Assembly: GCA_951804945.1 (NCBI GenBank)
Contig: OX638165.1
Location: 13,950,001-14,014,000 of the forward strand
Direction of reading: 5' to 3'
Source: Podarcis cretensis
Lineage: Eukaryota
Length of the DNA stretch: 64,000 nucleotides
Positions 989 through 63,220 of this stretch are shown here, one piece after another. The position numbers and the translations under genes were made by a program. Every line of letters begins with the position of its first letter. Position 1 is the first letter of the stretch. The notes under the pieces are model-generated. The model made no database searches. It was not told the DNA's origin and saw nothing but the letters and a program-made list of their open reading frames with translations.

Positions 989-1480
989 TTGTTTAGTCAT
1001 TTAGTCGTGTCCGACTCTTCATGACCCCATGGACCAGAGCACGCCAGGTACTCCTGTCTTCCACTGCCTCCCACAGTTTGGTCAAATTCATGTTGATAGC
1101 TTCGAGAACACTGTCCAACCATCTCATCCTCTGTCGTCCCCTTCTTCTTGTGCCCTCCATCTTTCCCAACATCAGGGTCTTTTCCAGGGAGTCTTTTCTT
1201 CTCATGAGGTGGCCAAAGTATTGAAGCCTCAGCTTCAGGATCTGTCCTTCCAGTGAGCACTCAGGGCTGATTTCCTTCAGAATGGATAGGTTTGATCTTC
1301 TTGCAGTCCATGGGACTCTCAAGAGTCTCCTCCAGCACCATAATTCAAAAGCATCAATTCTTTGGTGATCAGCCTTCTTTATGGTCCAGCTGTCACTTCC
1401 ATACATCACTACTGGGAAAACCATAGCTTTAACTATAAGGACCTTTGTTGGCAGGGTGATGTCTCTGCTTTCTGCTTTTT
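989..1480 (-). mobile_element. RTE-BovB LINE, 5'-truncated 3' fragment
   Basis: ORF 993-1424 (VFPVVMYGSDSWTIKKA...IDAFELWCWRRLLRVPWTARRSN...LRLQYFGHLMRR...LEKTLMLGK) is the characteristic C-terminus of the BovB ORF. Confidence 0.93.
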
Positions 1481-28769: not shown

Positions 28770-28980
28770 TATATGGATCGTGTGGGGTGGCAGAGCTCAA
28801 TGAAACCTTAGACACCCCTGACAAAAGAAAGAAAACATGGGCGCCAACTTGCTGCATGCTCTTCTGAGCCCGGTTTTTTGAACCGGGAAGGGCAGGGTAT
28901 AAATAAATAAATATTATTGTTATATATTATTATCTCTCTCTCCCTCCCTCTCTCTTTCCCCCTGCAGTTCACCTTTCCCA

Positions 28981-30199
28981 ATGCCTCCCTCGCCTCTGGA
29001 AGAACGGATCGGCGTGCTGCAGCGACCCAAAACTTTGGCCTTGCGCCTCAACCACAGCTTTGCCAACGGGGGCACCCCAGGCGGTGGCGAGAAGCAGCCC
29101 CCGGCGGTCTCCAGAGCGCCTGGCCAGGCCGCCCCGGCTCCCGCGAAGGCGCCCTGCGACGAGGCCGCACGCCGGGGGACGCCGGGCGTCCTGCAGCCCA
29201 ACCACTCTCACACCATTGACATCAAGCTGACGGTGGGAGGCGTGCAGAGCCTGTCGCCTGAGAGGAACGTCTCCCTGCAGCTGGACCTCAAGCAGGCCGA
29301 GCCTAAACCGAAAGGCCTCGCTGGGCCCCAGCTGAAGGTCTTCTTGCCCCAGGCGAAGCTCAAGAAGCGCTGCTTCAAGGAGAACTCCAAACCGGCGGTG
29401 CTGGACACATCCACCAGCTCCTCCTGCCTCTCCAGCCCCGCCATGCACCCCCTCAAATGCGGATGCCGCGGCTGCTGGCGCCTCATGCGCTGCGAGGACG
29501 CCGGACCCAAGGGCGGCTTGCTCTCCCTGGGCTGCTTCTCCTGCCGCTCCAGCCTGCGCTCCCTCAGCTGCTCCAGCTGCAGCCCGCCGTCCGTCAAGAA
29601 GCTGGGGTGCCTGCCCTGCACCCCCTCCTCGGCCCTGCACTCCCTGGCCTGCCTGGCTTGCAACCCCTCGGTCAAGTCGGGCAGCTCCTCCTGTAGCTTC
29701 TGCAGCAGCGACCCCATCGTGGCCTACGACCCCCGGGCGGGCTCGTCCCCGGCCCCCAGCTGCGGGGACGACGATGACTACAGCGTCCGCACCATCTGGC
29801 CCGACGAGCTGGCCAAGAAAATGACACGGTCCCGGGCGCAACAGCAGCAGCAGCAGCAGCATGTCTCCCCGCTCATCCTGGACTGCCGCAACCTGATGGA
29901 ATACACCAAGAGCCAGCTTCAGGGCGCCATGCGCTTCGGAGCCGCCGACGCAGCGGGCCGGAGGCGGCTCCAGCAGGGGAAGATGGCCATGCTAGATTTC
30001 ATCTCCTCGCGGGGAGGCTGCGACGCAAGGGACTCCTCGCTGCAGCGTCTCTGGGCCAAGGAGCCCGGCGGCCGCGCCAGTCCGGAGCCTCTCCCCGCCA
30101 GCCCCCCCAAGCCCCGCAAAACGCAGCCCTCCCAGAATCTCCACCTGGTGCTGGATTTGCTCAACAAAGATGGCGGGCAGGAAGGGGTCGGCCGGAGAG
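28981..30199 (+). CDS. DUSP10/MKP5-like MAPK phosphatase, coding exon 1: N-terminal region, CxxC array, kinase-binding (rhodanese-like) domain
   Basis: Acceptor at 28967/28968. Starts MPPSPLEERI (DUSP10 starts MPPSPLDDRV); TIWPDELAKKMT...ILDCRNLMEYTKSQLQGA...RRRLQQGK KIM; donor G|GTGAGC at 30199/30200 (phase 1). High GC3. Confidence 0.92.
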
Positions 30200-30519
30200 G
30201 TGAGCTGGGGGTTCTAGGTGCCGACCGCTGTGGTGGCAGCAGAAATTGCATTGGTGTGTCAAAAGTTCTTTCTCCTGGGGCCACCACTTCCCTAGTTGCC
30301 CTGAGCCTTCTGCTGGTCCGAGGGGAATGCGTTCTGGGCTAACACAATGTCTCCCCGCTTTAAAGAACTCCTGCCTCCAGACAAGAGGTTGATTATTTCT
30401 GCAAGGCTGTCGCTTATCCATCAGCCCTGAGTTTCCCTCGGGTCCTTCTCAGGCTTCCTGAGGTTATATTTTTCCTTATTACATTTTGTTCCACATTGAA
30501 CTACCTGTTTCCCGGCTGG

Positions 30520-30609
30520 TAATAATAATAATAATAATTTATTATTTATAGGCCACCCATCTGACTGGGTTTCCCCAGCTACTCTGGGCGGCTCCCAACA
30601 GAATTAATG

Positions 30610-30645
<36 letters not shown>

Positions 30646-30985
30646 TAAAAAGCAATAAAACATCAGACATTAAAAACTTCCCTGAACAGGGCTGCCTTCA
30701 CATATCTTCTAAAAGTCAGATAGTTGTTTATTTCCTTGACATCCGATGGGAGGGTGTTCCACAGGGTGGGTGCCACTACTGAGAAGGCCCTCTGCCTGGT
30801 TCCCTGTAACCTCAATCTTGCAGGGAGGGAACCTCCAGAAGGCCCTCAGTGCTGGTCCTCAGTGTCTGGGCAGAACAATGGGGGTGGAGATGCTCCTTCA
30901 GGGCCAAGACCGTTTAGGGCTTTAAAGGTCAGCACCAACACTTTGAATCGTGCTCGGAAACAAACTGGGAGCCAATGTAGGATGT
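30520..30985 (-). mobile_element. L2-clade LINE 3' fragment
   Basis: LHWLPVCFRARFKVLVLTFKALNGLGP is a classic L2 ORF2 C-terminal motif; (TAA)n tail. Confidence 0.8.
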
Positions 30986-32736
30986 AGACTCCCCTTGAAA
31001 GCCACAGGGAGAAAGGAAGTTTGGAGGAGAACCATAGATGCTCCCTAGAGTTCATTGGGGGAGATATGGGAAATTAAACCACAAAACATTATCTTGATAG
31101 AATGAATACAGCAGGAAGACACAACAGGGCAGTTCTTTCCATGCATGTTTTCCCTATGCCAATTGGGTTAGGTTTAAGATTTGCACCACTCCACCATCTC
31201 TTTGGTGACCTCATCCCAGCTGCATGAGCTGATGGCAAGATGCGAAGGGGGGCTTCACACCCCCCCAGTCCCCCCCCCACCTCACTTTTAGCACCTGTTC
31301 AAAACCCCATTGAACCAGAATGAACTCTACCCAGCTGGTAGCATGACATCATTTCTTTGACCTTCTTTCACACTTGCCCCCTCCCTTCTCCCCAGCCCCT
31401 GCCAGCCCCCACCATGGAGGGTGGGGTGTCATTTTACATAGCAGATGTTTTAGGTCAGGAAGAAGAACAAGTCCCCTCCCTTTTCGCCCCCACCTTCCTC
31501 CCACAGAAAACTGCAAAGGGGAAGGGGGAAGCCACTCTCAAGTGGTTTGGTTAGCACCAATTTGGAGCATACGGAGTACCCTTATACGGAATTGGACCGC
31601 TGACCTATCTAGCTCAGGGGTGCCTGCTCTGACTGGCAGCAGCTCTTGGGGTTTCAGGCAGGGAGCTTTCCCATCCCTATCTAGAGATGTCACTGGGGGG
31701 GTTGAACCTGCATTTAAGCAGAGGGTCTCACACGACCTTTTTCAGGGGTTGTTTCTGTGAGGTGGGCACAGAAGAGATTCAGAAACTCACAACTTAGAAT
31801 ATTACTCTGCCACCAAATTCACCAGCTTTGGGTGTCACACAGAGCTCTTTTCCCGTGTTGTGCCTTTAGGTAATTTTATACATTGGACTTCAGCATCTGG
31901 CTGGGATGGGGGTGGCTGGAGAGGCTCTTTGGTGCCCCACTTGCCCACCAGTGGTGGCCAGTGGTCAGGGGTGATGGGAATTGTAGTGCAAAACATCTAG
32001 AGCAGGTGCAGCGGGCAAAGGGGGGGGGGAACCTTTGGCTCTCCAGATGCTGATGAACTACACATCCCATAAGTGCCAGCAAGGATAGCGTACGACCAGG
32101 GAAGATGTGAGCCGTAGCTCAACCACATCTGGAGGGCTAAAGGACCCCCACACCTGATCCAGAGCGCCTCACCCCCCCATTCACTTGCTTCAAAATTAGG
32201 GAGTGCCAGCCCTGCTGTGTTTCCAGCTCCCTGTCCCCAACACACCTTTTTCCGAGCAGGGCTCTGTGCCTACACCTCCATCCAAACCTCCCACCTTGGC
32301 AGCATGACTGGCAGGTCATTGGGAGGGCAGCTGCTTTGCAGGGGGAAAGTCCCTGGTTTCATCCACAGCATCTCCAGGTAAGGTTAGGGAGACCACGCCG
32401 CCCCAAAATCCTGGAGTGGTGCTGACTGTCAGTGCAGACAATACTGAGATAGGCAATTGTCCATCACAAGACTCCTTGAGGATCATTTGATGCCAACACT
32501 CCAACTAAATAAGGAAATGAGAGCAAAATGTTTTGCCTGTGCTCACATCCTTGGTTTCTAACTGCTCAGCCAAACCTACTGATCGATTAAAACTTCGCAG
32601 CCCTAATTAAAATTGAATTATTACAATTCATTTCTTTACTCACTTACTCAAAGCTTTTTATCCTGCCAGAAAAGGCTCCCAGATCAGCTTACAAATGTCA
32701 GTGGTAAAACAGTCCCTGCCCTCAGGCTTAATTTAA

Positions 32737-32744
32737 AGAAAGAG

Positions 32745-32808
<64 letters not shown>
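32737..32808. repeat. (GAAA)n/(GA)n microsatellite
   Basis: Directly visible. Confidence 0.95.
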
Positions 32809-32934
32809 GGGGGGGGCACACACAAAAGGAAAACAGATTGGGAGGGAGGAGGAAAAAATAAAACTCAAGCACTTTTTCTGCACAATGCTTCCACTCCAGG
32901 GACTCAACCCCTTTGCTTTGTGTTTTGACCACAG

Positions 32935-33234
32935 GCAGTCTGATTGGGCCAGATGTTGCGGACGGCCCAGATGACTTGGGGCCCCCACTCACCCCTGACC
33001 TGGAGAATGCTGAGCTGAGCCCCATTCTGCCCTTCCTGTTCCTGGGCAACGAACGAGATGCGCAGGACCTCGAACGGATGCTGAGCCTCAACGTGGGGCA
33101 CGTTCTCAACGTCACCACCCACCTGCCCCTGTACCACGCCGACAGCGGGCGCCTGCGCTACAAGCGCCTCCCCGCCACCGACAACAACCGCCAGGACCTG
33201 CGCCAATACTTCGAGGAAGCTTTTGAGTTCATTG
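32935..33234 (+). CDS. DUSP10-like, coding exon 2: first half of DSP catalytic domain
   Basis: ACAG|GC acceptor and ATTG|GTGAGG donor, phase 1-1. [21 protein letters not shown]...[10 protein letters not shown]...YKRLPATD (general-acid Asp)...[12 protein letters not shown]. Confidence 0.95.
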
Positions 33235-33266
33235 GTGAGGTCTAGTCCTGCGGCGAAATAAAGGGG

Positions 33267-33446
33267 AGGGTGTAGCTCAGTAGTAGAGCATCCGTCTTGT
33301 ATGCAGCAGGTCTCGGGTTCAATTCCTGGCATCTCCCTCTGGAATGGTCTTTTGTTTGAAACCCTGATGATTCAAAGCCAGCCAGGATAGACAATAGCTA
33401 GATGGATCAAGGGGTCTGACTCTGTACAGGGCAGCTTTCTATGTCC
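33267..33446 (+). mobile_element. tRNA(Ala)-like SINE (many copies: about 4607-4770, 18226-18402, 21540-21700, 36228-36412, 43474-43632, 43688-43830)
   Basis: GTAGCTCAGT.GTAGAGCAT...TGCATGCAGAAGGTCCC.GGTTCAAT.CCTGGCATCTCC head and shared GAAACCCTGGAGAGCTGCTGCCAGTC body. Confidence 0.7.
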
Positions 33447-33652
33447 CTCATTTCTATTTTCCTCCCAATCTGTTTCCCTTTCTAAAAAAAACTTTGCTGC
33501 CTGTTTGCCTGGGGCCTATTCTTAACTCGCCGTAGGCGAACAGGCAAGGAGCTGTGTGTGAAATGGAATTTAGTCCAGGAAGCATTTGTGCACAACCCTT
33601 TCTCAGGTTAGCGTTGACGCTGTTTTTCCCCTCCCCCCTTCCCTTACTCCAG

Positions 33653-33918
33653 AGGAGGCACACCAGAGCGGCAAAGGAGTCCTCATCCACTGCCAGGCCG
33701 GTGTCTCCCGCTCGGCCACCATCGTCATCGCCTACCTGATGAAGCACACTCTCATGACCATGGGCGACGCCTACAAGTATGTCAAAGGCCGAAGGCCCAT
33801 CATCTCGCCCAACCTCAACTTCATGGGGCAACTGCTGGAGTTCGAAGTGGACCTCAACGCCGGCGTCACACCCCGGATCCTCACCCCCAAGCTGGCCGGA
33901 GTGGAGACCGAAGTGTGA
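33653..33918 (+). CDS. DUSP10-like, last coding exon: active site and C-terminus
   Basis: CCAG|AG acceptor; [12 protein letters not shown] active site, [19 protein letters not shown], ends [16 protein letters not shown]-stop. Total CDS 1785 nt = 594 aa. Confidence 0.95.
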
Positions 33919-39310: not shown

Positions 39311-39735
39311 TCACTTCCTGGGGGCGGCAGAGGGGGACTGGCCCCTGCTCTCCCAGACTTCACGGATGGTGCGGCGGACCTCCCGCGGGAGGTGGAGGGT
39401 CTCGGAGTGGCACTGGAGGATGTGCTGCTTGACGGTGGCCAGGCAGATGCGGCGCAGAGGGTACTCGCACACCATGCAGACCAGGTGATTGGCCGCGGCG
39501 TCAAAATCCACGAGGAAGCGGGCGCGCCAGGTGGGGTTGAAGCTCTTGGCCAGGAGTTGGGCGTCCTCGCTGCCCGCTGCCGCCCGCTGCCGGCGGGGCT
39601 TGGCGTCGCAATCTTTGGCGTTGCTGCCGGGGGAGTTGGCCAGGGCGCGAGGGGCAGGGTCCCGTGGTGGGCAGAGCTGGCGGGGAGGAGGATCCGTGGA
39701 GTGGAGCCGAAGTAGAGACACAGAGCATTTGCGAT
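39311..39735 (-). CDS. SPINDOC: SPINDOC last coding exon, with a second SPIN-DOC-type zinc finger
   Basis: Pyrimidine tract plus AG (39736-39737), phase 1 matching the previous exon. WRARFLVDFD...LVCMVC...VKQHILQCH...IREVW; stop at 39311-39313. Confidence 0.8.
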
Positions 39736-41932
39736 CTGGGGAGGAAGAGGCGGCGAATTGAAACAACAGGCCGTTCGCTCAGTCCACCTATCCCAGAGTT
39801 GGAAGGGACAACGGGGGTCAACTGACCCAACTCTCCGCAATGCAGAAATGTTCTACCCAATGTGGGGCTCGAACCCACAACCCTGATATTCAAGGGTCTC
39901 GTGCTCTATCAACTGAGCTGCTCTCACAACTAAAAGTGAGCATTTAGACAGCAACGAAAGAGCTCAGCTGGATCAAGCCAAAGGCTGACCATCTAGCCCA
40001 GCCTCCCATTCTCATGGTGGCCAACCAGATGCCCATTATGGGAAGCTGATCACAGAATCAGAGTTGGAGGGGACCCTGGGAATCATCTAGTCTAACCCCC
40101 TGAAATGCATATGGGTATCGAACCTGCGACCCTGGGATCATCAGCACCATGCTCTAACCAATCAAGCTATCCAGGCTGCTAAGCAGGACTTGAGGACAAA
40201 AGTGCTCTCTCCAGCCACCCAGATAGATCAGTCGGCAGAGCACGAGACTTAATCTCAGGGTTGTGGGTTCCAGCCTCACACTGGGCAAAAAGATTCCTGC
40301 ACTGCAGGGGGTTGGACTAGATGACCCTCATGGTCCCTTCCAACTCTGTGATTCTGTGAATCCCCAGCAGCTGGTCCCCGGAGACATGTACTGCCTTCAT
40401 TTACTGCTTCCACTCTGGAAGTAAAGCAGAGCAGCTGTGGCTTGTAGTCATGAATAGCCTTAAGCATCATGAATTTGTGTAATCCTCTTTTATAGCCATC
40501 CAAGTTGGCGGGCAGTACCTACGCCTCAGAAATGCCCCTGGGAAGTCCCCAAGCATAGCAGAAAGCTCAGGGGGCGGGCAGGGCTGAGAATGGGGATATA
40601 TAAAGAGAAGAGATGTTGGTGTGCAAATCCTGCCTTGGGAGACGGAAGGAGTTCCAGTCCAGTTTTCAGCCGGGCTTCAGCCTTGGCTGAGCTTGGAGGG
40701 AATAAGCCAGTGATGTGAGGTTGCTCGTTTTGGTGACTTTTGATACACAGCCGGCAAGATTGGAGATAACATTCAGCCTCCCAATTAGCAGGGGGGAAAC
40801 CATAACACAGCAAGGACAAGAAACATCGCTTGTTTGTGCTAAAACAGGGGCGGTGAGTTTCTGGCCTGCAGGCCAATCCTGGCCAGGCAGGGGGTCCAGT
40901 TTGGCCAGCCCTACCTACCCGTCTGTCAGCTGCCGTCACTCAGGAAAATGGGTTCAATTCTGCCTTGGCTGTGGAAACAGGCACTTGCAGCCAGAGCGGG
41001 ATTTAGCACCCCTGGCAGTCAGCTGAAGAGTGGGTGGTGGGTGGGCCTAAATCCGACCCAGTTTTGCCCCTTGCGCCTGTTCCTTATTGGGAACAAGCAG
41101 CAAGACTTACCCACTGCTCTCTTCCTTGGGCCTGGCTTTGCTTCAGAGTCCTGGGGTGGTTCTGTAACAACAACATCGATAATACATTGTGGCCACCTGT
41201 AGGAACCCGTGCCATCAACATGCCCCCCAAATCCCAGAATAACAGAATTACGGAGTGGGAAGGAGCAGTGATCTGCAACATTCCAGGCAGAGGGCCGTCC
41301 CACCTCTCCTTAAGCCAACAGCTTCCAAGGAAGCCTGACTCCCTGCCATTTCCATCCCTTGGCTCTAGTTCTGCAGGTGGGGACGGGACTCAGATGTTGC
41401 TGGACTCAGTAACCCCTAGCCGTTGGCCGTGCTTGCAGGGGCTGATGGGAGTTGGAGTCTTCCAGACCTGCTTTAAGGGGTTAGAACATGGTGGCCAGTG
41501 TTCCGTTTTAAGGGTGGGGTGGGCAGCCTGTGGCCCTCCGGACATTGCTGGGAGCCCAACTTGCAACAGTCAAGGAGGGAGCTTTTCCCCCCAGCTTCCT
41601 GCCCCTGCCCTGCCCCTTCCACCACTGCCAGTTGCCAGGGTGGGAAAAGAGAAGTCGATGGGATGGGAGGCAGAGGGTGGGGAGAGGTCAGTACAAGTCC
41701 GAGCCTCCAGGACACCGACCCTCAAGCCTGACCGCGGCTCCGCCTCCACCTCCTCAGGGAGGCCATGTGACAGCCTGGCTGTGTGCATGTTGCATTTGAC
41801 AGGTAACGTGCCTCTGGTTTGGGCCCGGGCGGCAGTGGTAGCAATGCACACATGTTTTACCTGCTCCCCCCTTCCTTCTCCTTTCCCTCACGCAGGGAGA
41901 TTTTTAAGTATGACCGCCAAAGCACTAATCAC

Positions 41933-42052
41933 CTGGTTGAGTCCGGCAGTACAGTTTCAAGGCAAAGCCAGCTGGAAAAGTGCCGTCCGTGAAGATACGG
42001 ATTTCGGCAGGTGCCGAGCCTGGGACCCCACATTCCGAGAGCCATTCCTTTC
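41933..42052 (-). CDS. SPINDOC: SPINDOC exon encoding the Spindlin1-docking peptide
   Basis: APAEIRIFTDGTFPAGFALKLYCRTQ matches human APAEVRHFTDGSFPAGFVLQLFSHTQ; AG/GT ends, 120 nt, phase 1-1. Confidence 0.92.
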
Positions 42053-43921
42053 CTGGGAAGAAAAGAGGCGGCGAGGAATTAAGCCAAGGATTGGGCAACT
42101 TTTCAAGCCCGAAGGCTGCATTCCCTTCTGGGCAGCCTTCTGGGGGCCGTGTGGAAGTGGCACTGGTTGTGGAAGAGGCCAGAGGTGAAAGAGGGCAAAG
42201 CATATTGGCTCTTTGTCAAATAGGATGGCTTACACACACGCTCACACTCCCCACACGCCTGCCCCACTTTCTCTCCTCCATCCAGACAGGCTAGAGGCAT
42301 AATCTGAATTCAAGGACATATTCCGGCCAGACAAAAACACTCAAGGAGGGTGCAGAAGCAAGGCCATGGAGGCAAGTGGCCTGGGAAGAGTCCCGAATCT
42401 GCCACCACTGAAAGTGACTACTATAAACTCAAAGTTAGACCTATTTAAAGTGATGGGCATGGCTCCACTAGGTTCACTAGTTTAAATGGGTCTACTCTGA
42501 GGAAGAAACTTAAGTTGGATGTAACCCCCACAATCCTATTCTGTCCCCTCCCAAAACAACAGCACAAAAAAATATGTACTCTGTACCAAGCAGAGCCAAA
42601 TTCTGCGATCTGTGTAAGTCAGGCACGTCAAACTACTCTGCACCCCCCCACCCACATTCTCACCCCACCTATTTTGCAAATTATTCTGACTGTGTTGGGG
42701 AAGGGGCACACAGCGACTTTTGCAAGAATGAAGGATGGTTTTGTTCAACCCACCAAATTCAGGTTTTCAGTATTACCAAAACCTTGATGGCATGCTGTCA
42801 AGCCCCTCTTTAAAGGTTAGAAACTTGACCTTCAAAGGAGCCAAGGAGGAAGGCAGATAAGATCCTACGAATGTTTGGCGCCTCTGCGGAGCGCTAGCCT
42901 GTGGGTGGACACACAAGGAGGCAGCTAGGCACGCAAAGGGAAGGAACGGTGGCGGCGACTGAACGGAAGACGCTTCCATTGCTTTGGGGAGGGAAAAACC
43001 TGCCCCCACTCTAAAAAGCAGCCTTACAGCAATGTTGCTAACCTGTGGTCTTGCTGGGATGCTTGCTCGTGTCTTTGATGGCGCTCAAGCTGTGCCACCT
43101 CTGCTGGCCTTGTGATCGCCGTTCAGGGTCTAAGCATACATAAAGGAAAAACAGTTCCACGGGTTAGGTCCATGGTCTTCAACTGGTGGCTGGAGTCAAG
43201 TCATATCCCACTCCAACGCTAAAGTGGAAGGCAGTGCCTGTGGCCATCAGGCTTCGCTCATCCTGCACACTTTGCAAAAGAAGGGATTTCCGGATGAGGC
43301 TCTTATCCCTACAAGAAGAGCCTACAGCCATAAAGACTCCTCCTTCTACCCAACAGCCAGAGGTAGAGAGATGCCCTCTTTGGCACCTGGGCAAGAGAAG
43401 GCTAAAGCCAGACACATGTGTTAAAAACAAACAAACATTGGAATGGGGTGTCGTCCTGCTGGTTGAGGGATTAAGGGCCATAGCTTGGTGCTTTGCACAC
43501 AGAAGGTTCCAGGTTCAATCCCTGGCATCTCCAAGTAGGGCTGAAAAAACTAATTGAAACCCTGGAGAGCTGCTGCTAGTCAGTGTAGACAGCACTAAGT
43601 TAGATCCCTTGGCGTAAGGAAGCTTCCTATTTTCCAGTTTAAATTCAGAACCATGAGGACTAGAATCTCATTTCGTTTTTTAAGGGAGGGGCCACAGTTC
43701 ACATGTTTCCTGCAGAAGGACCCAGGTTCAGCTTCCTGGAGGCATCTCCAGGTAGGGCTGCAGAGCGCCCCCTGCCTGAAATCCCTGCCGGTCCGTGTCG
43801 GCAGTGTTAGGCCAGACGGCAGCTCCCTATTTTTCTTACGAGTGGGTCCTGGGTCTGAGAACGATGACGATGACCCGTCTAAGCGACGACCACCACCACC
43901 ACCTCCGGCCCCAGCACTCAC

Positions 43922-44026
43922 CGCAGCGCGCTCTCAGGTGCCCACGCTTCCGACTCGCCGGCTGCCGCTCCTCCGAATCGAGGAGCACCTCTATCTCAGC
44001 CGGCTGCTTGCTCTTGCCGGGGTCGC
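43922..44026 (-). CDS. SPINDOC: SPINDOC internal exon (missed by the ORF track)
   Basis: CCAG|GC...TGCG|GTGAGT, 105 nt, phase 1-1. Encodes DPGKSKQPAEIEVLLDSEERQPASRKRGHLRARC (human PAEIVVLLDSED). Confidence 0.88.
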
Positions 44027-45562: not shown

Positions 45563-45847
45563 CTGCAGGGGAAGGTTGTGGCTCTGGCTCAGGAAGCACC
45601 ACCCCTTCGCTCCAGGCTTCCAGGATGTTGCGCTTCTCTTCGAAGCTGAAGTCCAAGGAGTGGGCGTGATGCTCCAGAATGTGTTTGCGGGCGGCCACAG
45701 GCCCCGAGGCACTCAGGTTGCCGCCGCACACCATGCACACTGGCTGCCTGCCCCCCGAGCTCTCGGCAATCAGGTACTCCTGACTCCAGGAGCTGCCTGC
45801 CTCTTCTGGGCCAACCTCGGCCACCGGGATTACAACCAGCCGCTCTC
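45563..45847 (-). CDS. SPINDOC: SPINDOC exon encoding the SPIN-DOC zinc finger
   Basis: SWSQEYLI...CMVCG...ARKHILEHHAHSLDFSFEEKRNILEAWSEGV matches human SWEQEFLV...CMVCG...ARSHILEQHPHTLDLSPSEKSNILEAWSEGV; 285 nt, phase 1-1. Confidence 0.93.
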
Positions 45848-57624: not shown

Positions 57625-58567
<943 letters not shown>

Positions 58568-60293: not shown

Positions 60294-60683
60294 GTGGAGA
60301 ATTTCCGCTGAGTAGCAGCCGCAGGAGGCGCCGTGGCCCAGGACCCCTCTCCTCTCGTGGGGGGCGACGACCCTCCGGCCTGGCCCTGAAAGCCTCCCCG
60401 GGAGTGGAAGAGCAGAACTTGGAGCGCTACCTGAAAGAGTCCCTGCAGAGCTGGTTCCAGTCTGAGTTCCTGATGGACTATGACCCTCAGGGCAACCGCC
60501 TCTTCTGCATGATGTGTGGCTCCTCACTGCCCAGCCTCAACTTGGACGACATCAAGAGGCACGTCATGGATGCCCACCCCAGCTCGCTTGGCTTCAGCCC
60601 CGCCGAGAAAGCCAGCATCCTGGAGACTTGGAACGCCCGGGCCGTGGTCCCGCCAGCTGAGGGCACAGGAGAGACACCAGTGG
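60294..60683 (+). CDS. ZFTA: ZFTA exon 3, zinc finger 2
   Basis: LERYLKESLQSWFQSEFLMDYDPQGNRLFCMMCG..LPSLNLDDIKRHV...HP; ACAG|GT acceptor and GG|GTGAGG donor, 390 nt, phase 1-1. Confidence 0.93.
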
Positions 60684-62794: not shown

Positions 62795-63220
62795 AGGCAG
62801 AGTCTGAGCCGTCCCCTCAGGACCTGACCAAGAAGGAGGTGGACCCTCCCACGTCCCCAGACCAGCCTGCTGGCGAGGACGGCTCTGAGGAGGCCGGCGC
62901 TTGGGACTCGGAAGAGAGTGGCCTTCCTGCCCCGGCCCGGGGGAGGGACCACCGCCGCTACTTCCAGGAGCACTGGCGGGTGGAGTACTTGATGGACTAC
63001 AACGGGTCGCGCCACGGCCTGGTGTGCATGGTGTGCGGGAGCTCCTTGGCCACGCTCAAGATGAGCACCATCAAGAGGCACATTCAGCAGAAGCACCCGG
63101 ACTCCACCCAGCTGAGCCACCACGTCAAGGCCCTCATCGTGGAGGAGTGGAACCAGAAGGTGGCCCGCCTGGCGGACGCGGAAGACTCCTTGCCCGAAAC
63201 AGACGGCGAGGCAGACAAAG
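62795..63220 (+). CDS. ZFTA: ZFTA exon 4, zinc finger 3 (gene continues beyond the window)
   Basis: GRDHRRYFQEHWRVEYLMDYN...[25 protein letters not shown]; CCAG|AG acceptor and AAG|GTAAGG donor, 426 nt, phase 1-1. Confidence 0.93.

Follow-up and report, generated by a model that had tools for sequence, protein, structure and literature searches.

Lizard SPINDOC carries a second Spin-doc zinc finger that was probably inherited from a tetrapod ancestor and lost in mammals

Introduction

The SPINDOC gene of the lizard Podarcis cretensis raises the question which parts of this protein mammals have lost and what these parts might do. The gene is encoded on the minus strand of the window analyzed here, a stretch of 64,000 nucleotides (contig OX638165.1, positions 13,950,001 to 14,014,000). 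A first, sequence-only reading of this DNA proposed that the last exon encodes a zinc finger missing from human SPINDOC, which we take to have one finger, and that an ancestral protein with two fingers flanking the Spindlin-docking peptide was truncated in mammals.

SPINDOC is described as a mostly disordered mammalian Spindlin1 cofactor that is required in spermatid development (PMC8442334, available text) and docks onto Tudor 3 of Spindlin1 (PMC13213052 and PMC8568969, available text). According to the available part of a 2026 preprint, the silencing of young transposons by SPIN1 and SPINDOC in mouse stem cells works via histone marks (bioRxiv 10.64898/2026.08.20.746118). Reptile SPINDOC with two fingers is already present in RefSeq and UniProt as automated models that include the exon, thus the sequence itself is not new. 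Literature searches, with most subscription papers and supplements outside their scope, found no paper on the domain evolution of SPINDOC (second finger, HTH, a third finger F3, mammalian loss), and the available text of PMC13538051, PMC8442334 and PMC9995695 does not cover these subjects.

Results and Discussion

The terminal exon of lizard SPINDOC contains a Spin-doc finger

Podarcis proteins were mapped to the window, resulting in a chain of coding exons (Table 1) in which every junction is phase 1; all proteins compared in this work are gene models. The chain encodes 374 residues with 8 differences to the squamate model P0001. The SPINDOC peptides in PDB entries 7CNA (E 5e-6) and 7E9M (E 1.8e-5) identified the docking exon and align to residues 189-215 of P0001; the mean identity of this exon across squamates is 94%. 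Lizard F1, the finger encoded upstream of it, groups with the mammalian SPINDOC finger in an amniote F1 clade (100/96). The acceptor of the terminal exon at 39735 consists of a pyrimidine tract and CAG and is in phase 1, and the stop codon TGA is located at 39313-39311.

Table 1. Features of the SPINDOC gene and of the neighboring ZFTA-type gene in the window
Feature	Position in window	Strand	Basis
First coding stretch, conserved start codon	46614-46770	-	mapped Podarcis models
Exon with finger F1	45563-45847	-	Pfam PF18658, 66.4 bits
Optional 105-nt internal exon, conserved PAEIEV motif	43922-44026	-	absent from some models
87-nt internal exon	43043-43129	-	absent from some squamate models
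Spindlin-docking exon	41933-42052	-	matches SPINDOC peptides of PDB 7CNA, 7E9M
51-nt phase 1-1 exon	41111-41161	-	canonical AG and GTAAGT sites
SPINDOC final exon (poorly conserved linker, then F2)	39311-39735	-	97-98% identity to Podarcis muralis models
Linker, replacing the turtle/amphibian HTH	39545-39735	-	pLDDT mostly <50 at residues 1-57; 41% mean identity in squamates
F2, Spin-doc zinc finger	39347-39532	-	PF18658 match, predicted fold, squamate conservation
ZFTA-type gene head to head with SPINDOC, finger 1	58253-58465	+	PF18658, 97.4 bits
ZFTA-type gene, finger 2	60437-60631	+	PF18658, 93.3 bits
ZFTA-type gene, finger 3	62947-63150	+	PF18658, 107.3 bits

The sequence-only reading had joined the docking exon directly to the terminal exon. 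Its phase-1 frame holds, the path does not: annotated models run from 41933 to 41161 and from 41111 to 39735. The 51-nt exon in between is included in P0001, P0002 and four other mapped squamate models; a direct join of 41933 to 39735 would likewise stay in frame, still the Podarcis models include this exon. That the terminal exon is a separate gene or a fossil, attached to SPINDOC by annotation pipelines, is extremely improbable, since an in-frame phase-1 chain with canonical sites links it to SPINDOC, it has no start of its own, and the same join recurs in gene models from 37 reptile species as well as on two short contigs (P0030 and P0235). In the skink-like record P0030, a single frame of 426 amino acids spans F1, docking peptide and F2; its contig of 2,898 bases is shorter than the 7.5-kb coding span of the Podarcis locus and thus fits a spliced transcript.

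The finger encoded by the terminal exon, F2, matches Pfam PF18658 with 73.3 bits (E 1.3e-20, profile positions 3-64 of 64, cut-off 27.3), which bears out the proposal of a second, full C-terminal Spin-doc finger at this place. Its ligands follow the pattern C-x2-C-x14-H-x4-H (minus strand; Cys 39478 and 39469, His 39424 and 39409), with an upstream Trp (39529) and a downstream helix, and 4/4 ligands are invariant across 16 squamates. In the AlphaFold model of the last exon the first 55 residues are disordered and residues 56-131 are folded; the secondary structure predicted for F2 is helix, hairpin, helix, helix, with a pLDDT of 79-86 over residues 71-130. Zinc binding and folding of F2 are predicted on this basis. 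The base pattern is that of coding sequence (GC3 0.91, GC2 0.42; flanking intron 0.51 and 0.55). Among 15 other squamates the mean identity to Podarcis is 87% for F2, 76% for F1 and 41% for the linker. Fold searches with the lizard finger stayed below significance (best E 1.6 in Foldseek, best Z 3.1 in VIA) and are uninformative. A Cys directly precedes the second His of F2 (window 39412-39409, minus strand) in 9/9 tree rows and is a possible alternative zinc ligand.

F2 occurs in reptiles and amphibians and in none of the mammalian proteins listed

Among the matches listed, F2 was found in 33/44 squamate proteins (23/29 species), in 17 of the 19 turtle proteins (14/16 species) and in 6/8 amphibian proteins (3/5 species, a caecilian and two frogs). 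The count comprises named orthologues, unnamed mammal-like records having been excluded beforehand, and it is inflated for squamates, since the search began with the F2 exon as query. Mammalian isoforms with the same finger would have spoken against a mammalian truncation; among the matches listed, F2 is present in 0/32 mammalian proteins from three lineages (17 eutherian, 9 marsupial, 6 monotreme). Because F2 was part of the search profiles, a mammalian protein with F2 would rank higher, and the mammalian zero is not biased downward. F2 is likewise absent from one coelacanth isoform and from one tuatara fragment, the model of which ends before the docking exon. An HMM scan of orthologues with Pfam is in agreement, with a single PF18658 finger in 7/7 scanned mammalian proteins. 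The claim that the finger is missing from the mammalian form therefore stands for these proteins; for human SPINDOC itself, the closest indication comes from a chimpanzee isoform, which has one finger.

F2 is not present in 11/44 squamate and 2/19 turtle models, several of which look frameshifted or cut short; genuine losses or short isoforms may be among them. No crocodilian or bird SPINDOC was among the matches listed (the best 150 of 232 in a whole-library profile search), which is not evidence of loss. Turtle isoforms (P0053-P0056, P0232 and P0233) differ in composition, some skipping the docking peptide (F1-F2) and others lacking F1 (docking-F2). The existence of isoforms carrying F2 but no docking peptide suggests that F2 may also act without Spindlin.

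Nothing would have been lost if an isoform or a downstream exon that annotation has missed still encoded F2 in mammals. The monotreme models do differ in their last exon, and the mammals among the matches listed are a sample. Against this, the 32 mammalian proteins without F2 include models that continue in other reading frames, no mammalian tail exceeds its own shuffles when scored with the F2 profile, and none of the mammal-like representatives examined from the profile search (17 eutherian-like ones left out) has a finger after the docking peptide. We consider a hidden mammalian F2 improbable and a loss the better reading.

F2 is an old finger of its own lineage

A tree of 61 fingers and 70 columns was calculated with LG+G4 and mixture models. 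Reptile F2 lies on one side of a branch together with the first post-docking finger found in the caecilian and in the two frogs (90/99 with LG+G4, 100/99 under the mixture model). The coelacanth finger and the final finger of amphibians form a separate clade, F3 (100/99). AU tests rejected trees in which reptile F2 was placed within a ZFTA finger group (seven groupings, p 0.0004-0.04) or was joined with F3 (p 0.003) or with amniote F1 (p 0.012). F2 of reptiles and amphibians is thus one clade apart from every ZFTA finger, which argues that the mammalian absence is a loss and not a reptile gain. With amphibian orthology assigned by motif order and the 70-column tree, these sequence comparisons support an F2 that is at least as old as tetrapods and was lost in mammals.

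A reptile gain by copying of a ZFTA finger had to be considered, because the ZFTA-type gene lies head to head with SPINDOC at a distance of 7-12 kb and F2 is slightly nearer to its three fingers in the window (33%, 29% and 33% identity) than to F1 (26%). The higher similarity to ZFTA fingers that the sequence-only reading had pointed out holds by this narrow margin; turtle F2 is far closer to lizard F2 (67-69% identity), and amphibian F2 shares 36-43% with it. Since the caecilian and two frogs carry F2 and the AU tests reject the ZFTA, F3 and F1 placements, copying is largely refuted and very improbable. The family relationship is plain: ZFTA (C11orf95) has the C-x2-C-x14-H spacing of F2 (C129 and H144, available text of PMC12431856). 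F2 nevertheless nests in no ZFTA group and differs by its Cys before the second His, and the ZFTA-type proteins scanned do not have the docking peptide found in SPINDOC. The first two ZFTA fingers of the window each fall with their axolotl ZFTA counterpart, the third joins no clear group, and no PDB sequence matched any ZFTA finger, which is uninformative. The head-to-head arrangement of ZFTA and SPINDOC is presumably also present in human.

Turtle and amphibian orthologues, known from automated annotation and in several cases labelled ZFTA-like, contain F2 past the docking peptide as the lizard does. Unlike the lizard, turtles kept an HTH before F2, and amphibians have F3 in addition, with F1 degraded or lost. 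The Ascaphus and Discoglossus proteins read docking - HTH - finger - finger; Geotrypetes has a degenerate F1 - PAEI - HTH - finger - finger in an isoform without docking peptide, and Rhinatrema a degenerate F1 - PAEI - docking in a model without F2. The Latimeria protein, a single isoform with the label ZFTA isoform X3, consists of F1 - PAEI - docking - finger (F3), without HTH and F2. Amphibians carry F3 and the lizard does not, hence lizard SPINDOC is itself a reduced form. The proposal of a two-finger ancestor truncated in mammals is right in that mammals lost F2, and has to be revised in that the ancestor very probably had more than two fingers. We regard it as highly probable that the ancestral order was F1 - docking peptide - HTH - F2 - F3, that F3 was lost in reptiles, that the HTH eroded in squamates, and that F2, F3 and most of the HTH were lost before the monotreme split.

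Several further observations concern F1 and outgroup proteins. In amphibians (P0111, P0129, P0131, P0142) caecilian F1 is degenerate, with the second His missing from the Geotrypetes copy, and F1 was not detected in the frog models, a loss in the reverse direction. P0098 (XP_064407994.1) and P0142 (KAM4617888.1) have SPINDOC architecture despite the source label ZFTA or ZFTA-like. The bullfrog protein P0147 (Aquarana) contains the PAEI motif and two F3 copies, without docking peptide and F2. In ray-finned fish, P0143 (Polyodon si:dkey-28a3.2), P0162 (Amia) and P0240 (Channa) are long proteins with a single terminal finger that groups with F1 (97/98); in the Polyodon and Amia proteins a PAEI-like motif follows the finger, and there is no docking peptide. 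These three may be the fish counterpart of SPINDOC, ending before the docking exon. F1 and ZFTA finger 2 of the window share a branch with two ray fingers (97/95).

The mammalian tail looks like a relic of an HTH

The stretches preceding F2 in turtles and amphibians match each other with an hhalign probability of 73% (0/60 shuffles). HTH_23, HTH_28 and HTH_SB (Sleeping Beauty) match them in Pfam, all below cut-off, including HTH_SB in Geotrypetes with E 2.9e-6. In the Discoglossus model the stretch forms three helices. Comparisons of the turtle and amphibian HTH to known HTH domains gave Z 5-6.8 (best Z 6.8, rmsd 1.4, 49 aligned), a range that indicates the HTH fold, not its family; the top Foldseek hits of the frog model are paired domains, none of them significant. 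In the lizard exon the three-helix HTH is absent, the stretch is predicted to be disordered, and 31/100 and 1/100 shuffles reach the profile scores. The HTH is eroded in squamates.

Mammalian SPINDOC (C11orf84), the cofactor that docks to Tudor 3 of Spindlin1, has the N-terminal motif, F1, PAEI motif and docking peptide in common with the lizard protein and uses the same exon slot past the docking exon. It has one PF18658 finger and stops about 97 residues past the docking peptide, where the lizard has F2. The mammalian tail matches helices 1 and 3 of the turtle/amphibian HTH across a gap of 14 residues; the match is weak (probability 21.6%), was reached by 0/200 shuffles, and two control stretches were at noise. 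The conserved mammalian tail thus looks like an HTH relic. The likeliest course of events, with moderate support from these alignments, is that the final exon itself was retained in mammals, while helix 2 disappeared and a stop arose ahead of F2 or right at its beginning.

The VSLL segment, which the sequence-only reading regarded as similar in lizard and mammals, had to be abandoned as a homologous anchor, since 7/60 shuffles reach the match, which is probably false. The lizard VSLL (exon residues 6-9) is in ungapped register with turtle VSAL, and the mammalian one lies about 25 residues past the divergence point of the alternative models. A decayed finger was searched for with the F2 profile in the tails of 32 mammalian proteins, the echidna W...CC stretch included, and none was found; with the F3 profile all scores in these tails were negative (best 5/200 shuffles). 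The conserved last Trp of the therian tail could be the first Trp of F2, which no test supports.

F2 may read DNA and tether Spindlin to chromatin

Classical C2H2 numbering designates positions -1, 2, 3 and 6 as contact positions. The residues at these positions are K-S-T-R in ZFTA finger 1, R-G-T-R in turtle F2 (14/14 species), R-A-T-R in caecilian F2 and [KR]-[SC]-T-R in F3 (6/6), the K/R-x-T-R contact positions being carried over from C2H2 numbering and not from a solved complex. F1 and ZFTA finger 2 are without the K-S-T-R signature, and amniote F1 varies, position 6 often being acidic. ZFTA finger 1 uses its second helix to bind a GGCCCC site (available text of PMC12431856). By analogy, F2 would read DNA via the helix before its first His and give Spindlin a sequence-directed route to chromatin, which we hold to be slightly better than an even chance. 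The docking peptide would hold Spindlin and F2, bound to DNA, would tether it to chromatin, adding a sequence-directed route to the reading of histone marks by the Tudor domains of Spindlin. F2, F3 and HTH would then be the DNA-reading parts and F1 mainly a protein module, and mammalian SPINDOC would rely on histone marks and protein partners. We assign a probability of roughly 0.6 to the overall reading that F2 was inherited from a tetrapod ancestor, was lost in early mammals via truncation of the same exon, and binds DNA, thereby tethering docked Spindlin to chromatin.

Squamate F2 departs from the ZFTA signature, with C-A-T-Q in 15/23 and C-A-T-R in 4/23 species-level patterns, and the lizard finger may therefore have lost or altered DNA reading. 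DNA reading is consequently more weakly suggested for lizard F2 than for F2 in general, and a protein-binding role would be the main rival: with the same history, squamate F2 could be a protein-binding or structural module whose DNA reading went with F3 and the HTH. The Cys at position -1 and the mostly Gln at 6 speak for this, as do the eroded HTH next to it and the nearly invariant last helix of F2, which fits a protein surface. A precedent for partner binding is residues 115-165 of human SPINDOC, which bind PARP1 (available text of PMC8568969) and overlap the end of F1 if the chimpanzee numbering holds. Thr at position 3 in 21/23 squamate patterns, Arg at 6 in 6/23 and the R-G-T-R retained in turtle F2 stand on the other side, and we judge a mere protein-binding role rather unlikely. 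A DNA-binding F2 remains the preferred reading.

The stepwise loss in SPINDOC is larger than earlier proposed, and a DNA-tethering role appears plausible. The analysis suggests that the ancestral SPINDOC was likely a DNA-binding adaptor, which mammals reduced to a docking scaffold. A more far-reaching proposal, which we regard as possible but doubtful, is that SPINDOC began as a sequence-specific DNA-binding factor steering Spindlin, composed of BED-like ZFTA-family fingers and a captured Tc1/paired-type HTH. Lineages would have kept different subsets, F1 being lost in frogs, F3 in reptiles and the HTH in squamates, and mammals would have dropped all DNA-reading parts, with the HTH relic left as conserved C-terminal motif. 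Weak zf-BED matches to the BED fingers of hAT transposases were obtained for ZFTA and frog fingers, and none for lizard F2; unlike Tc1/paired-type HTH transposases, SPINDOC orthologues have no transposase catalytic domain, and their HTH matches are under curated cut-offs. If this proposal held, the mammalian stem lineage would have replaced sequence-guided by histone-mark-guided targeting of Spindlin, the silencing of transposons in mouse stem cells included. Histone-mark targeting in mouse stem cells fits a mammalian SPINDOC without DNA-reading parts and is compatible with it, not a test of it.

Should SPINDOC outside mammals carry DNA-reading modules, the mammalian form would be the derived exception, the conserved and unexplained C-terminal motif of mammals would gain a candidate origin, and the reptile and frog proteins would offer a direct way to ask whether sequence can target Spindlin. 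The comparison also flags amphibian and coelacanth SPINDOC orthologues behind the database labels ZFTA-like or uncharacterised.

Further features of the window

The first candidate poly(A) signals of SPINDOC are located at 38550-38508 (minus strand), about 760-800 bases past the stop codon. The last SPINDOC intron contains three related short repeats in both orientations (39790-40352, 78-85% complementary), which we take to resemble tRNA-derived SINEs. An open reading frame at 996-1478 (minus strand) has no Pfam match at E 0.001 and presumably represents the end of a RTE/BovB-type LINE. A dual-specificity phosphatase gene (28903-33915, plus strand), which we assume to be DUSP10-like, lies tail to tail with SPINDOC; two segments, 32862-33242 and 33574-33915, encode its DSPc domain.
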